Source of the DNA: a virus | Taxonomy: Duplodnaviria; Heunggongvirae; Uroviricota; Caudoviricetes | Direction: 5' to 3' (one strand) | DNA: 12,617 nt | IMG/VR virus record: IMGVR_UViG_646862323_000004 | Shown here: one piece after another, positions 1,985 to 9,983 of the stretch | How positions within the stretch are numbered: the stretch's first letter is position 1 | Layout of the letters: each line of letters begins with the position of its first letter | The notes under the pieces: model-generated | Database searches by the model: none | Told to the model about the DNA's origin: nothing | The model's input: the letters and a program-made list of their open reading frames with translations, nothing else | Translations under genes and position numbers: made by a program

Positions 1985-2794
1985 TTATTCCTCTGAATTA
2001 TCGATTACACTGTATTCCCCGGTTAATACAGAGGAATCTGCAGGATCGATTGTCAGTGGTTCCTTTTCATCCATTGATACTGCACGCTGGATCTCAATTG
2101 ATACGGGCAGATATTTGAACAGGCGACGAATAGCCGTTTTCTTTGCCATTTCTTCCCAGTGAGTTACCCACGGCCCGTTATTACCAGCTTTACTCAGGCT
2201 GCGCACCAGCTCAATCTGTTTGCGCGTCATAACTTCAAACTGAGTACCTCCGTCTTTCAGTCTTGCGACAGCATAGACGTGGGTAACCGGGGCATCTTCG
2301 TTTTCTCCCGGGCGGTGTATTAACTTTTCATCAAGGCCAAATTCGAAGCTAAACTCGTCACCTTCACGGACAACACGGGCTGACAGGCTGGCGATTTGAC
2401 CAGAACGGCGAGCCAGATCAATCATGCCGCGATAGCCAATGATTAGCTGAACGTTCTTTTTACCGCTCTTTTCGTTTTTATTACCAAAAGGCAGTAAATA
2501 TGCATGACCGAGGGCGCTACCTGGCTCAAGTCCGAGCTGTGAACACTGTACGATCGCACTGACAAAACTCATAGTGTCACAGTTTCCTAACGCCGGAACT
2601 TTACGAATTTCTGTGGTGGCGATACGGATCATACGTTCAGCCGTCATATGGCGTGGAAGAGCTGCTGCCAGTTGCTCTTTCATTGATGGCTGGTTAATAA
2701 AACTAATCACGTCGCTATTTTTAACTGCTGCTGGTGCACGGTTTCCCTGAGTTTTTTGCAGATCGGCTTTTGCGATTGGTGGTTGCTTAGTCAT
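1985..2794 (-). CDS. recT: RecT single-strand annealing protein, 269 aa
   Basis: ORF translation from the ATG at 2794-2792 ([17 protein letters not shown]...) matches my recollection of RecT over its whole length. The track ORF has 19 extra upstream codons. Confidence 0.93.
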
Positions 2795-3629
2795 TTGCAT
2801 ATTCCTTAGCCCAGCGGGGTAGTGATAATGTCTTAATAGCTGGCCATTCATCGGTATTCAGGCAGTCAGACAGGGTTCGCAGATTGCGGTGATATTCCTG
2901 TTGACCTGCCAGTTTTGCTTCTTCGCCCATCATGAAAATTTCAACCGGATAACGTCCGCATTCAATAGTTGTGCTGGCAACCAGAAAAACGAAAGTTGGC
3001 TGCACTCCAAACTGTGCTTCATAACCGTCACTGTAGAATGCATCCTGAACGTGATAGCGGTAGTCGTAATAAGCGGTTTTGAATCGTTGAATATCCGCCG
3101 TAGTTTTCACGTCCATGATCCAGTGAAATTCAGGGATAATTTTGTCCGGACGGCACCGACACAAAATTCCTGTTTCAGGATCTTCCCAGTAAATTGATGA
3201 TTCAGCGTGTCCGGCGCTTTCAACAAGCCATTGCCCCAGCGGCAAAGCCATAACGCTTTGATACATGAGTTCAATTTTCCGGCCTTCTTCCGCAGTGATA
3301 ACCGTTTTTCCTGTGCTTGCGCATTCCATCAGAAACGCTTTCTCTTCTTCTTTTCCGGCGTTTGTACGGCGGTTAAATTCAGGTGCTACGATAAAGCGGT
3401 TACTGAATTCTTCCGGTTCAAGTACCCGGCAGTGGAAAGCAGTTCCTAAATCGAGCGTTTTTGTCTTTGTGGTGTCCACGGGGGCATTTTTACGCCACAA
3501 ATATAGTGCCGGAGTATCAGCAATGTCATCGAGCTGAGACTTACTGATACCGGGACCCGCGTGGTAATTCTCATTCGAAATTCCGTAATAAATACCTGGC
3601 TCTATGTCTTCTACGATTTTAGTTCCCAT
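2787..3629 (-). CDS. recE: RecE C-terminal exonuclease-domain ORF, 280 aa, out of frame with the recE N-terminal fragment
   Basis: Translation (…[23 protein letters not shown]...[13 protein letters not shown]) corresponds to roughly the last 280 residues of the 866-aa RecE as I recall it. It begins with an ATG at 3629-3627 created by the junction, with no clear Shine-Dalgarno upstream. Confidence 0.8.
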
Positions 3630-3886
3630 GTCATGGAGTCTTTGCTGAGTTGATAGCGTTCACTCCAGGTAAAATCGATCTCACCTTCAGCGGGCAGGTC
3701 ATTAACGACAGGAAAATTCGTGGCAACAGCTTTAAAATAGCTGCTCAGTTTTTTACCTGACTTAACGATCAGGTAGTCCAGAGTGGCACAGGTCGATTCA
3801 AAATCGTTGCTTGCCCACAGGACGACGTCAGGTTCACCGGATGATTTTTTCGCTTTCCGTAACAGGAAGAGTGGTTTTGTGCTCAT
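3611..3886 (-). pseudogene. recE: RecE N-terminal fragment (about 90 aa) ending in a premature TAG after a deletion junction
   Basis: [24 protein letters not shown]...KDSMTWELK is the RecE N-terminus as I recall it, then S-stop. It overlaps the C-terminal ORF by 19 nt in a different frame, so about 500 codons of recE are missing. Confidence 0.72.
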
Positions 3887-3957
3887 TGTTTTTTAACCTC
3901 AACTCAGATTAAAATTCGTTTTGTTCAGTGAATGATCTTGCCGGATACACACTGTTC

Positions 3958-3989: not shown

Positions 3990-4263
3990 AGATTTCACCT
4001 TTTAATTTCATTGCAATTAGAGTTGCCAGAAATTCGGCTTTTTTTTCTGCGGGCAGATTCTTTCCGATATGCACCAGGCACATTTTTTTGACACCTTCAT
4101 CAAGTGTTTTTACGTTGCCTGATGGACCATCGATATCAACCACAGTGAATGGGGTTTCTTTATTTTCTGTTTTAATTACGTAGCCAATGCGCTTTCCTTC
4201 CAGATTCACCTCGTGAACAATGTCATCGGTAGTTACAACAGTGGCTTCATAATTGGTAATCAT
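3988..4263 (-). CDS. racC: RacC, 91 aa
   Basis: ATG at 4263-4261 is preceded by AAGGAG at 7-nt spacing. The translation (MITNYEATVVTTDDIVHEVNLEGKR...) matches my recollection of RacC. The track ORF starts 16 codons upstream at an ATG with no ribosome-binding site. Confidence 0.85.
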   Translation of the reverse strand: MITNYEATVVTTDDIVHEVNLEGKRIGYVIKTENKETPFTVVDIDGPSGNVKTLDEGVKKMCLVHIGKNLPAEKKAEFLATLIAMKLKGEI

Positions 4264-5978: not shown

Positions 5979-6167
5979 GGTGTCGCCTATGGCACCTCCG
6001 CAGGCAGTGCTGGCTACTGGTTTTTACAGTTGCTCGATAGAGTCACGCCCTCACAGTGGGCAGCAATAGGTGTGCTGGGTAGTCTGGTGTTTGGCCTGTT
6101 GACGTATCTGACAAATCTTTATTTCAAGATTAAAGAAGATAAGCGTAAGGCTGCACGGGGAGAGTAA
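5979..6167 (+). pseudogene. 5'-truncated class II pinholin (phage 21 S21 / EssD-like); first 9 or so codons and the start codon missing
   Basis: The in-frame translation [62 protein letters not shown]-stop matches S21 residues 10-71 as I recall them. There is no ATG, GTG or TTG start in frame after the upstream stop at 5946. Confidence 0.75.
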
Positions 6168-6171
6168 TTCA

Positions 6172-6516
6172 ATGACTCAAAACTATGAACTGATTGTGAA
6201 AGGGATCCGCAATTTTGAGAATAAAGTTACGGTAACTTTAGCGTTACGGGACAAAAAACGCTTTGACGGTGAAATTTTAGACCTGGACATCTCGCTGGAC
6301 CGTGTTGAAGGTGCCGCGCTGGAGTTTTATGAGGCAGCAGCCAGAAGGAGCATCAGACAGGTCTTCCTGGATGTTGCTGCAGGGTTATGTGAAGGGGATG
6401 AGCAGTCACCGGAAAAGCGCCCCATAATTTTAGAGGCGCAGGGTGTGTGGATAACCTACAAAGGAAAACTGCCGGGAAGAATTACTGGTTCACTGAAGAC
6501 TCCGCCGAAATGGTAA
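6172..6516 (+). CDS. DUF1327-family protein (Qin YdfR-like), 114 aa, in the lysis cassette
   Basis: ATG at 6172 lies 5 nt after the pinholin stop. The translation (MTQNYELIVKGIRNFENKVTVTLALRDKKRFDGE...) resembles the YdfR family found between holin and endolysin genes in Qin-type prophages. Confidence 0.78.
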   Translation: MTQNYELIVKGIRNFENKVTVTLALRDKKRFDGEILDLDISLDRVEGAALEFYEAAARRSIRQVFLDVAAGLCEGDEQSPEKRPIILEAQGVWITYKGKLPGRITGSLKTPPKW

Positions 6517-6754
6517 TTTCACCAGCATATTTTTCTTCCAGTAATACCGCCAGCCACTTGAAAGAATTTTGTTGTTGCTGGGACCATTTGGGGTTGAGTG
6601 ATTCAAGCTGGAGCGATGCCAGTGTTGGTTGCATTTGTTCCTTGGGAATTGAGAATGCCAGATATGAAAATGCGACAGTAAGGGCATTTACATCATCCCG
6701 AAGCTTGGAAATGCAGTCGAGCAACTCCTGTAGAGAAATGGTGCTATTGTCCAT
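6482..6754 (-). CDS. Hypothetical 90-aa protein of predicted helical character, convergent with and overlapping the DUF1327 gene
   Basis: ATG at 6754-6752 is preceded by GAGAGGA at about 7-nt spacing. Codon usage is coding-like, whereas the competing plus-strand ORF 6447-6779 translates to Ser/Cys-rich junk. I recognise no family. Confidence 0.45.
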   Translation of the reverse strand: MDNSTISLQELLDCISKLRDDVNALTVAFSYLAFSIPKEQMQPTLASLQLESLNPKWSQQQQNSFKWLAVLLEEKYAGEITISAESSVNQ

Positions 6755-6859
6755 AAACAATCCTCTCTATTGTATTTAACTATTCCTTGCCTGATTCAAC
6801 AGGCCGGGACAGATAAACATATCCAGGGTTCAGAAACCGATAAATCCTGATAAATATCC

Positions 6860-7393
6860 ATGAACGCAAAAATCAGATACGGCCTGTCGGCTGCCGTTCT
6901 GGCACTGATTGCCGTCGGTGCGCCTGCGCCTGATATTCTCGACCAGTTTCTGGATGAAAAAGAAGGTAACCACACAACGGCATACCGCGATGGTTCCGGT
7001 ATATGGACCATCTGTCGTGGTGCCACAATGGTGGATGGTAAGCCCGTCATACCGGGAATGAGGCTGTCGAAGGAAAAATGCGACCAGGTTAACGCTATTG
7101 AACGTGATAAGGCGCTGGCATGGGTGGAGCGCAATATTAAAGTACCACTGACCGAACCACAGAAAGCGGGTATAGCGTCATTTTGTCCCTATAACATTGG
7201 CCCCGGTAAGTGTTTCCCGTCGACGTTTTATAAGCGGCTGAATGCCGGTGATCGTAAGGGTGCATGCGAGGCGATTCGCTGGTGGATAAAAGATGGTGGG
7301 CGCGATTGCCGCATACGTTCAAATAACTGCTATGGACAGGTTATTCGTCGTGACCAGGAAAGCGCATTAGCCTGTTGGGGGATAGATCAGTGA
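6860..7393 (+). CDS. SAR endolysin (phage lysozyme, T4-lysozyme/GH24 type; R21/RrrD-like), 177 aa
   Basis: N-terminal Gly/Ala-rich signal-anchor-release segment ([17 protein letters not shown]) followed by the E...D...T catalytic motif ([18 protein letters not shown]). No Shine-Dalgarno is visible upstream of the ATG. Confidence 0.9.
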
Positions 7394-7854
7394 GCAGAGT
7401 CGCCGCGATTATTTATGCTCTGGTTATCTGCATCATCGTCTGCCTGTCATGGGCTGTTAATCATTACCGTGATAACGCCACCGCCTACAAAGAGCAGCGC
7501 GACAAAAATGCCAGAGAACTGAAGCTGGCGAACGCGGCAATTACTGACATGCAGATGCGTCAGCGTGATGTTGCTGCGCTCGATGCAAAATACACGAAGG
7601 AGTTAGCTGATGCGAAAGCTGAAAATGATGCTCTGCGTGATGATGTTGCCGCTGGTCGTCGTCGGTTGCACATCAAAGCAGTCTGTCAGTCAGTGCGTGA
7701 AGCCACCACCGCCTCCGGCGTGGATAATGCAGCCTCCCCCCGACTGGCAGACACCGCTGAACGGGATTATTTCACCCTCCGGGAACGACTGGTAATGATG
7801 CAGGCCCAACTTGAAGGTGCTCAGCAATACATAACCGAACAGTGTTTAAAGTAA
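7390..7854 (+). CDS. rzpR: Rz-type i-spanin, 154 aa from a GTG start overlapping the endolysin stop (GTGA)
   Basis: N-terminal transmembrane helix ([19 protein letters not shown]) followed by a charged coiled-coil region. The track ORF starts 5 codons upstream at a TTG. Confidence 0.85.
7610..7795 (+). CDS. rzoR: Rz1-type o-spanin lipoprotein, 61 aa, nested in the +1 frame of Rz
   Basis: AAGGAG ribosome-binding site before the ATG. Signal peptide with lipobox (LVVVGC) and a proline-rich mature region ([15 protein letters not shown]), entirely embedded within the Rz gene. Confidence 0.88.
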
Positions 7855-7991
7855 AATCTTAACTACAATATGATTCATTTTGATGATTGTTTCATAAGGA
7901 ACAGTGAAGTAAGATCTAAGAGGAGTTAAATTTTATACAGTATAATCATAATATTGCAGCAAGGTGGTTATAATTGAAAGAATATTTAGAT

Positions 7992-9450
7992 ATGAATACA
8001 TCTCATGTAAGAGTTGTTACTCATATGTGTGGGTTCCTGGTTTGGCTCTATAGTCTTTCAATGTTGCCACCAATGGTTGTAGCATTGTTTTATAAAGAAA
8101 AAAGCCTATTCGTTTTCTTTATAACTTTCGTTATATTTTTTTGTCATTGGTGGCGGAGCGTGGTATACAACTAAGAAATCTGGCATTCAATTACGTACCC
8201 GTGATGGGTTTATTATAATTGTAATGTTTTGGATTTTGTTTTCTGTTATTAGTGCATTCCCTTTATGGATTGACTCAGAACTTAATTTAACGTTCATTGA
8301 TGCTCTGTTTGAAGGGGTTTCTGGAATAACAACAACAGGAGCAACTGTAATTGATGATGTTAGTTCATTACCTCGGGCATATTTGTACTATCGGTCACAG
8401 TTAAATTTTATAGGTGGTTTAGGAGTTATTGTTCTGGCGGTTGCTGTATTGCCATTATTGGGTATTGGTGGTGCAAAGCTTTATCAGTCAGAAATGCCGG
8501 GGCCATTTAAGGATGACAAACTCACTCCCCGCCTGGCCGATACGTCACGGACACTGTGGATAACTTATTCTTTATTAGGTATTGCTTGTATTGTCTGTTA
8601 TAGACTTGCAGGAATGCCTTTGTTTGATGCTATTTGTCACGGGATTTCCACAGTTTCGCTTGGTGGTTTCTCAACTCATAGCGAGAGTATCGGATATTTT
8701 AATAACTATTTGGTTGAGCTGGTGGCTGGTTCTTTTTCCCTGCTATCGGCTTTCAACTTCACTCTTTGGTATATTGTTATTAGCAGGAAAACGATAAAAC
8801 CTTTAATCAGAGATATTGAACTTCGTTTCTTTCTGTTAATAGCCTTAGGGGTGATCATTGTTACCTCTTTCCAGGTCTGGCATATAGGTATGTATGACTT
8901 GCATGGAAGTTTTATTCATTCGTTTTTTCTTGCCAGCTCCATGCTCACTGATAATGGTTTAGCTACGCAGGATTATGCAAGCTGGCCCACGCACACGATA
9001 GTGTTTTTGCTGTCGTCAAGTTTCTTTGGGGGATGTATAGGTTCAACTTGTGGTGGAATTAAGTCACTTCGATTTCTTATACTTTTCAAACAAAGCAAAC
9101 ACGAGATAAATCAGCTTTCTCATCCCAGAGCGTTGTTGAGTGTAAATGTAGGAGGGAAGATAGTTACAGATCGTGTAATGAGGTCTGTATGGAGTTTCTT
9201 TTTTCTTTATACTCTCTTCACGGTGTTTTTTATACTGGTGTTAAATGGTATGGGATATGATTTTCTTACATCATTTGCAACAGTGGCTGCATGTATTAAT
9301 AATATGGGATTAGGTTTTGGGGCTACTGCATCGTCATTCGGAGTGCTTAATGACATTGCAAAATATTTAATGTGCATAGCTATGATTCTTGGTCGCCTTG
9401 AAATTTATCCTGTTATTATATTGTTTTCAGGTTTTTTTTGGCGCTCCTAA
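7992..9450 (+). pseudogene. trkG: TrkG potassium-uptake protein gene disrupted by a +1 frameshift (extra C near 8145)
   Basis: Frame 3 reads MNTSHVRVV...FVIFFC then HWWRSVVYN-stop (8172-8174). Frame 1 from 8146 reads IGGGAWYTTKKSGIQLRTRDGFIIIVMFW and continues to 9450. The span is 1459 nt, one more than 486 codons. The region is strongly AT-rich. Confidence 0.85.
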
Positions 9451-9587: not shown

Positions 9588-9983
9588 ATGAGCGAGAAAT
9601 TAAAGATAGTCTATCGCCCATTACAAGAATTGTCACCGTATGCGCACAACGCCAGGACGCACAGTACTGAGCAGGTGGCACAACTGGTAGAAAGTATTAA
9701 GCAATTCGGCTGGACTAATCCGGTGCTGATTGACGAAAAGGGCGAAATTATTGCGGGTCACGGTCGTGTTATGGCGGCTGAAATGCTCAAAATGGATTCT
9801 GTTCCGGTCATTGTTCTGGCCGGAGATACAACCTACAGGGAATGGTTTTTGCGTCAGCCTTACACCAGACAAAAACAGATTGTGGGGGAAACCCGGGCAA
9901 AGCTGATTCGGGATGGCGGTATGTCGCCAGATGAATTTTACACCGATAAAGGCGAATACCCGGATCGCAACAGTAAGCGGTAA
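9588..9983 (+). CDS. ynaK: YnaK-like ParB/Srx-type N-terminal domain ORF, 131 aa, with an aberrant C-terminal extension
   Basis: The first 80 or so residues (…IIAGHGRVMAAEMLKMDSVPVIVLAG) look like a ParB N-terminal nuclease-like fold. The remainder (DTTYREWFLRQPYTRQ...) has no ParB character and overlaps the next ORF. Confidence 0.68.
   Translation: MSEKLKIVYRPLQELSPYAHNARTHSTEQVAQLVESIKQFGWTNPVLIDEKGEIIAGHGRVMAAEMLKMDSVPVIVLAGDTTYREWFLRQPYTRQKQIVGETRAKLIRDGGMSPDEFYTDKGEYPDRNSKR

Follow-up and report, generated by a model that had tools for sequence, protein, structure and literature searches.

The recE gene of the prophage sequence studied here is very probably a pseudogene specific to one laboratory lineage. 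The 12,617-base window (the whole stretch of DNA that was analysed) is best read as the Rac prophage of BL21-lineage Escherichia coli B, in which 1501 bp have been deleted out of frame from within recE, and the open reading frame (ORF) that still spans the nuclease domain as an accidental by-product of that deletion.

The prophage and its features

The window comprises the Rac cryptic prophage from intR through ydfK, and is matched over its full length by the genomes of BL21, BL21(DE3), C41/C43, BLR, NEB Express/T7 Express and similar strains. The sole difference from the BL21-type sequence is one additional base (12,617 vs 12,616), a homopolymer variant in trkG (T7 vs T6) that is private to the window. 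The features of the recE region are listed in Table 1.

Table 1. Features of the recE region, in window coordinates
Feature	Position	Strand	Remarks
Genes of the minus strand, in order			intR, xisR, rcbA, ralR, recT, two recE pieces, racC, ydaE, kilR
recT	1985..2794	-	Intact; 269 aa, WP_000166319.1; PF03837 match; own AAGGA Shine-Dalgarno (SD) sequence
C-terminal ORF	2787..3629	-	280 aa: MGTK followed by RecE 591-866
N-terminal recE remnant ORF	3611..3886	-	91 aa: RecE 1-90, Ser, TAG
TAG ending the N-terminal remnant	3611..3613	-	First base 16 nt past the A of ATG 3629
Deletion junction	3617/3618	-	Common prefix to 3617, common suffix from 3618; AA common to both sides
AAAA run in CUA AAA UCG UAG	3617..3620	-	Putative slip site; N- and C-terminal frames differ by -1
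ATG opening the C-terminal ORF	3627..3629	-	9-12 nt upstream of the junction; no SD
GAGG SD-like element of the native recE ATG (3886)	3897..3900	-	-6.6 kcal/mol

Size, junction and frame of the deletion

The extent of the deletion was established by a base-level comparison of the window with the corresponding region of E. coli B ATCC 11303, taking the common prefix and common suffix of the two sequences; REL606 was also compared. An earlier note on this DNA had claimed a large internal out-of-frame deletion of recE joined near 3611-3629, and this is upheld: 1501 bp are missing, with the junction at 3617/3618, as given by the comparison with the ATCC 11303 and REL606 genes. The gene in the window is shorter by exactly this amount (3n+1) than the intact recE of these B strains, which has 2601 nt and 866 codons, while the flanks are 100% identical. 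REL606 encodes the same RecE protein as ATCC 11303 (WP_000105139.1), and K-12 RecE differs from it at one residue.

The missing stretch can be given as either nt 271-1771 or nt 269-1769 of recE, as the AA microhomology is assignable to either side of the junction. The last whole codon on the N-terminal side is codon 90 (AAA), and the native sequence picks up again inside codon 591 (ATC), codons 1-90 and 591-866 being kept and joined out of frame. The previous estimate that about 90 N-terminal and 280 C-terminal codons of the 866 survive is accurate for the former, all 90 of which are native, and slightly too high for the latter, of which 276 of the 280 are native.

Distribution and origin of the deletion

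A probe of 120 nt centred on the junction was compared with 5426 complete E. coli genomes. It is matched contiguously at 100% in 32 of these, all of them BL21 derivatives. Coverage of at least 80% of the junction query is found in 33 genomes, comprising the 32 contiguous BL21-type sequences and 11PC, which carries a different deletion. The B strains ATCC 11303, NCTC10537, REL606, B-ZidR and B-DidR, the last two of which are drug-resistant derivatives of E. coli B, have an intact recE between identical flanks, as do several natural isolates whose Rac is of the same B type. The deletion is therefore distributed as a BL21-lineage deletion, being present in BL21 derivatives and not in REL606 or other B strains. 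Because all 32 genomes with the junction are BL21-type and the other B strains are intact, the deletion is, on the evidence of these sequences, real and of a single origin in the laboratory lineage leading to BL21.

The same junction is also present in two IMG/VR contigs; that these are laboratory-strain DNA is a guess. The possibility that the break in frame is an artefact of sequencing or assembly, the real recE being intact or fused in frame, draws some encouragement from the variant in trkG, which shows that the source sequence is fallible. However, an identical junction is shared by 32 complete genomes independently assembled in different laboratories and on different platforms, and by the two IMG/VR contigs, and the gap is one of 1501 bp rather than a homopolymer indel. 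The probability of an artefact is accordingly negligible, and the concern about assembly that had been attached to the frame discontinuity can be set aside in favour of a genuine deletion.

A single illegitimate-recombination event at a 2-nt microhomology would account for the removal of the 1501 bp from recE, and it would have occurred in the laboratory lineage to BL21 after the split from REL606 and the other B strains. According to a preprint on the BL21 suf deletion, in a passage citing Table 4 of Studier 2009, genome analysis brought to light a number of large deletions that occur only in the BL21 lineage and are presumed to stem from UV treatment; the loss across sufA-sufB is another example (bioRxiv 10.1101/811059). 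The lesion in recE is most likely one of these deletions, although the assignment is indirect. Like them, it is restricted to BL21 derivatives and does not occur in REL606 or other B strains; like them, it is kilobase-sized with minimal homology at the junction. Furthermore, the window carries another deletion seen in BL21 only, at 9956/9957, where 2544 bp including genes of the tail-fibre region have been lost with a 2-nt microhomology (AT), apparently by an event similar to that in recE. A 2014 paper, drawing on comparative genome papers, counted recE among the genes whose 'authentic' K-12 copy was moved into BL21(DE3) by transduction, and so treated the resident gene as non-authentic (PMC4158980); this and the lineage distribution support the assignment.

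Coding capacity of the recE remnants

As the deletion is out of frame, and translation from the native start stops after 91 codons, recE is a pseudogene. The N-terminal remnant covers positions 1-89 of the 203 in Pfam PF06630 and is labelled 'RecE family exodeoxyribonuclease' by the NCBI annotation pipeline PGAP (WP_024181909.1), which records 2787-3617 as a pseudogene 'missing N-terminus'. The lesion is already known as that of the BL21 lineage, is annotated as a pseudogene and is no new biological feature. Neither the lineage lesion nor the existing pseudogene annotation had been recognised in the earlier note.

Residues 29-264 of the C-terminal ORF match positions 1-222 of the 233 in the PF12684 (PD-(D/E)XK) profile. 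The alignment of this ORF with PDB 3H4R (E = 2.8e-182, chain residues 4-265 aligned) contains a single mismatch, Pro in the ORF vs Leu in the chain. The structural and Pfam matches together settle the matter of completeness: as judged from the predicted protein, the PD-(D/E)XK nuclease domain is complete. Full-length ExoVIII/RecE was defined by the NCBIfam equivalog NF007259, with a cut-off of 1269 bits, which neither of the leftover ORFs reaches, with 623.7 bits for the C-terminal and 129.1 bits for the N-terminal one, against 1831.4 bits for intact B-strain RecE. The gene that follows, recT, had been described as intact and directly downstream, and is indeed so; its accession is the same as in strains with intact recE, and its first 8 nt coincide with the end of recE, such that the nuclease ORF has the adjacent, translationally overlapping recT that characterises a RecE with its partner.

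The retained segment can be compared with RecE truncations of known activity. E588 is a 279-residue truncation (588-866) that is reported to keep the 5' exonuclease and is used with RecT for ET recombination (PMC11257833). The suggestion that the C-terminal ORF starts near the boundary of a functional truncation is correct, since its first native residue, I591, lies 3 residues inside E588. Relative to E588, the BL21 ORF (591-866) lacks the first 3 residues, and it extends 15 residues further towards the N-terminus than the crystallised fragment 606-866 (3H4R), its native N-terminus falling between the start of E588 and residue 606. The two differ in their means of expression: E588 is produced from plasmids with a designed ribosome-binding site, whereas the BL21 ORF begins with the foreign residues MGTK and has neither an SD nor an evident promoter. 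Translation of such a truncation would call for proven coupling or for a ribosome-binding site ahead of the start codon; the BL21 ORF has the ATG but no such site.

Translation of the nuclease reading frame

The start codon of the C-terminal ORF had been thought to be created by the junction. This is not the case: the ATG at 3629-3627 already exists in intact recE as nt 258-260, spanning codons 86/87 (ACA TGG) out of frame, and the deletion only changes the frame into which it opens. In the intact gene this ATG begins an out-of-frame ORF of just 26 codons; it is in the nuclease frame in the window because the deletion is of 3n+1 bases. The nuclease ORF is thus best seen as an accidental by-product, in which a pre-existing out-of-frame ATG happened to land in the nuclease frame.

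The strength of potential SD sequences was estimated as the energy of the duplex with the anti-SD of 16S rRNA, the median over all positions in the window being used as background. The best duplex at ATG 3629, at -0.9 kcal/mol, falls short even of the background median of -2.1 kcal/mol, and by this measure no SD is present. The corresponding energies of the neighbouring starts are -6.6 (native recE), -6.0 (recT) and -9.2 kcal/mol (racC), in agreement with the earlier remark that ATG 3629 lacks a clear Shine-Dalgarno sequence. Independent initiation at this codon is therefore expected to be poor.

Translation could alternatively reach the nuclease frame from the native recE start. The N-terminal remnant had been said to stop 18 nt past ATG 3629, and this is accurate for the last base of the TAG at 3613-3611; its first base comes 16 nt after the A of the ATG. 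The upstream ORF hence ends within a few tens of nt of ATG 3629, the spacing expected of a reinitiation site, and termination followed by reinitiation without an SD does occur in bacteria. Ribosomes terminating at this TAG might then restart at ATG 3629 to give an active MGTK-RecE(591-866), a latent minimal RecE working with RecT. Several observations are consistent with such a product: RecE 606-866 and the PF12684 domain are both present in their entirety in the C-terminal ORF, the native part of this ORF starts just inside the functional E588, recT is intact, the upstream 91-codon ORF has a usable SD (GAGG), and ATG 3629 is the AUG closest to the TAG. Furthermore, the nuclease domain alone (RecE 564-866) can replace the full-length protein genetically (PMC11611040). 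Against this, the duplex energy of -0.9 kcal/mol at the restart codon would predict a low efficiency, and literature text searches gave nothing on whether BL21 expresses its own RecE or RecT and no report of endogenous RecET activity in this strain.

A second route would be frameshifting. The C-terminal frame is the N-terminal frame shifted by -1, a Lys AAA codon is available in both at the junction, and the tRNA-Lys of E. coli is shift-prone on runs of A. A -1 slip on A_AAA could join RecE 1-90 to 591-866 as a protein of 366 aa, and the run stands just before a rare UCG codon and the TAG. However, it consists of only four A and is not part of a full X_XXY_YYZ heptamer, the local fold around the slip site is weak, and intact recE contains the same AAAA run with no known frameshifting. 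Such a fusion is most improbable. Judging from the sequence, restart or a -1 slip is possible but probably weak. The C-terminal ORF would then be translated at a trace level if at all, either by restart after termination at the TAG 16 nt downstream or by a rare -1 slip.

Transcription of the operon

Any translation of the nuclease ORF would also depend on transcription of the operon. In K-12, recET is silent unless activated by sbcA mutations (PMC9504249), and the requirement for activation of this type even in that strain also argues against a latent minimal RecE. The homology between the window and K-12 stops 26 bp upstream of the ydaG start, and in place of K-12 racR through ydaW (L005 9484-13207) the window has lysis genes, such that the B-type Rac has neither racR nor the ydaG-racR spacer. 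A consensus scan of the K-12 stretch found its only strong leftward promoter-like site, TTGACA-17-TATAGT, in this spacer, adjoining a palindrome similar to one between racR and ydaS. The same scan found no promoter-like site on the minus strand of the window between 4200 and 7000. With neither racR nor the promoter-like site that K-12 has upstream of ydaG, the early-left operon as a whole would be expected to be poorly transcribed in B strains.

A promoter-like site within the C-terminal ORF itself (3529-3500, minus strand) was considered and discarded, as were terminator-like sites, neither class being commoner than in shuffled sequences.

The failure of the consensus scan to find a promoter-like site for the operon in the B-type prophage is a further point against a latent minimal RecE, which is unlikely. 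The by-product interpretation is preferred, and the 'startable' nuclease ORF is, at the level of the sequence, a fact with no supporting expression signal.

An instructive comparison is with the sbcA-type deletions of K-12, in which, as reportedly described by Chu, Templin and Clark in 1989, an upstream gene is fused to the C-terminal part of recE. These likewise lose much of N-terminal recE and keep the nuclease domain and recT. By contrast with the BL21 deletion, which is out of frame, they are in-frame fusions behind an active promoter and were selected for exonuclease VIII. Nothing suggests that the BL21 deletion was selected for RecE activity.

A right endpoint shared with a second deletion

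The right end of the BL21 deletion lies at recE nt ~1770, at V590/I591. The mink isolate 11PC (NZ_CM137005.1) also has an internal out-of-frame deletion in recE, of ~1.37 kb, with a 2-nt microhomology and an intact recT, and its gene is annotated as 'RecE family exodeoxyribonuclease, frameshifted'. The right endpoint of this deletion is at most 1 nt from that of BL21, while the left endpoint differs (nt ~462-464), as does the allele, which has a middle region of the 683R6/STEC383 type. The two deletions are alike in being out of frame and in having a 2-nt microhomology; that of 11PC is unique to this one genome, a single natural isolate. The same position also marks a boundary among intact genes. 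In the STEC383-type recE, present in ~85 genomes, homology to the K-12/B allele ends at this point, beyond which the nuclease module is a different and longer one, paired with another RecT.

One explanation is that the endpoint is not random, recE nt ~1770 being a preferred breakpoint for recurrent deletions and module exchanges. An independent deletion in a different allele, with a different left end and a right end within 1 nt, would fit this proposal, as would the switch of module at the same point in the ~85 STEC383-type genomes, and a shared right endpoint is not predicted by purely random deletion. However, only two deletions are involved, both from a search that required both BL21 flanks, and the microhomology is just 2 nt. 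Selection favouring functional exchanges of domains can account for the mosaic boundary, although it cannot explain why two out-of-frame deletions end there. A scan for other junctions at this boundary in IMG/VR and metagenome contigs, using a pattern with non-G at position -3, returned only the BL21 junction from IMG/VR, twice, and none from the metagenome contigs.

Hairpins were considered as a cause of the shared endpoint and rejected. The folds of 91-nt single-stranded DNA, taken from intact B recE for the BL21 endpoints and from the 683R6 allele for the 11PC-type left end, are unremarkable (z = -0.6 for the BL21 right end, -0.1 for the BL21 left end and +0.4 for the 11PC-type left end), and this too counts against a preferred breakpoint. 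Inverted repeats noted by eye (CGGGA/TCCCG and GGGATC/GATCCC) are too short to carry weight. The two-ORF recE of phage vB_EcoS-683R6 was examined as a potential natural split of the gene; the split lies beside a run of N (XXXXXXXX in translation), which marks an assembly gap, and it was discounted. A preferred breakpoint is quite unlikely on this evidence, and with two cases coincidence remains the simplest reading of the shared endpoint.

Implications

The boldest combination of these possibilities, in which all BL21 strains hold a dormant minimal RecE-RecT pair accessible by restart or slip and V590/I591 is a recurrent point of breakage and exchange, is very unlikely. If it were true, a transcribed Rac early-left operon would yield an E588-like exonuclease beside an intact RecT, and the V590/I591 position, if recurrent, would have been used by both deletions, in BL21 and in 11PC, as well as by the natural swaps of nuclease and annealase modules.

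For the engineering of BL21, the deletion means that the strain cannot supply full-length RecE, the form that the literature links with efficient linear-linear recombination, and whatever RecE activity might be left would depend on a weak restart. In metagenomics, the recE junction is a handy marker of BL21 DNA, and two IMG/VR 'viral' contigs carry it. The lesion is otherwise mostly of little consequence, affecting a normally silent gene of a cryptic prophage that is already a RefSeq pseudogene. The point of some general interest is that its breakpoint coincides with a natural module boundary of RecE, at which a second, independent deletion also ends.

Variation in recE

The right ends of the BL21 deletion and of the out-of-frame recE deletion in strain 11PC, a mink isolate, agree to within 1 nt, and the 11PC deletion is an event independent of that in BL21. 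It is at this same point that the STEC383-type recE alleles (1048 aa, found in approximately 85 genomes) change to a different nuclease module, whose partner RecT is also different. Neither sequence nor structure gave a reason why the two deletion ends and this module switch should coincide.

Another natural route to truncation, involving IS1A, is observed in E. coli ST12468 (NZ_CP103694.1, 1749-3299). The IS element lies directly upstream of the recE remnant, which begins approximately 30 nt inside the nuclease-domain region and is labelled by PGAP as a PD-(D/E)XK pseudogene missing its N-terminus; recT is intact. Two overlapping ORFs, of 555 and 332 aa, are annotated for recE in Escherichia phage vB_EcoS-683R6 (ON470595.1, 666-3331). 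Because a run of N adjoins the split in this record, a natural split gene was rejected in favour of a probable assembly gap.

Coordinates of features in the window and in comparison sequences
Feature	Sequence	Coordinates	Strand	Remark
Shared recE right endpoint	window	3616-3618		recE nt ~1770
Shared recE right endpoint	11PC	3240-3260		recE nt ~1770
Nuclease-module switch in recE	STEC383	2575-2585		recE nt ~1770
trkG, two ORFs	window	7974..8174 and 8224..9450	+	reading of window
trkG, intact	NC_012971.2	7992..9449		annotation
Residual 'hypothetical protein' ORF, 738 nt	BL21(DE3) NC_012971.2	9930..10667		left by 2544-bp deletion
BL21 recE junction	IMGVR_UViG_3300017643_000048	3583-3620
BL21 recE junction	IMGVR_UViG_3300009034_004111	3992-4029

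Divergence of Rac between B strains and K-12

The Rac prophage of the window and the B strains lacks racR, ydaS, ydaT, ydaU, ydaV and ydaW (window 5983-7416 versus 9484-13207 in the K-12 MG1655 comparison sequence, L005), in place of which are found essD, a ydfR-like gene, a lysozyme gene and an Rz-like lysis gene. The K-12 ydaG-racR spacer contains TTGACA-17-TATAGT (L005 9655-9627), a leftward promoter-like site close to the consensus, and next to this site is the palindrome TAGGCTATGCCTA. This spacer is also absent from the B-type Rac, although kilR is nonetheless intact. B strains thus have neither the repressor nor the likely early-left promoter.

Differences specific to BL21 and to the window

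A run of 7 T in trkG (window 8136-8142, + strand), as opposed to the 6 T of all complete BL21-lineage and B-strain genomes, splits this gene into two ORFs and accompanies a total length of 12,617 nt against 12,616 nt in the references; the best genome match around the run has 99.2% identity over 121 nt. Either the source strain has the extra T as a private variant, or it arose from a sequencing error in the homopolymer.

Comparison with REL606, ATCC 11303 and natural isolates of the same Rac type places a second BL21-specific deletion, of 2544 bp, at window 9956-9957, with 2 nt of microhomology (AT). Lost with it were a DUF6651 gene and the greater part of a tail-fibre N-terminal-domain gene; the additional T of trkG makes the coordinates of the residual ORF 1 higher in the window.

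The BL21 recE junction recurs exactly in two 'viral' IMG/VR contigs from metagenome-derived collections, which suggests that the datasets behind both contain BL21 laboratory-strain DNA. This junction could be used as a contamination marker.
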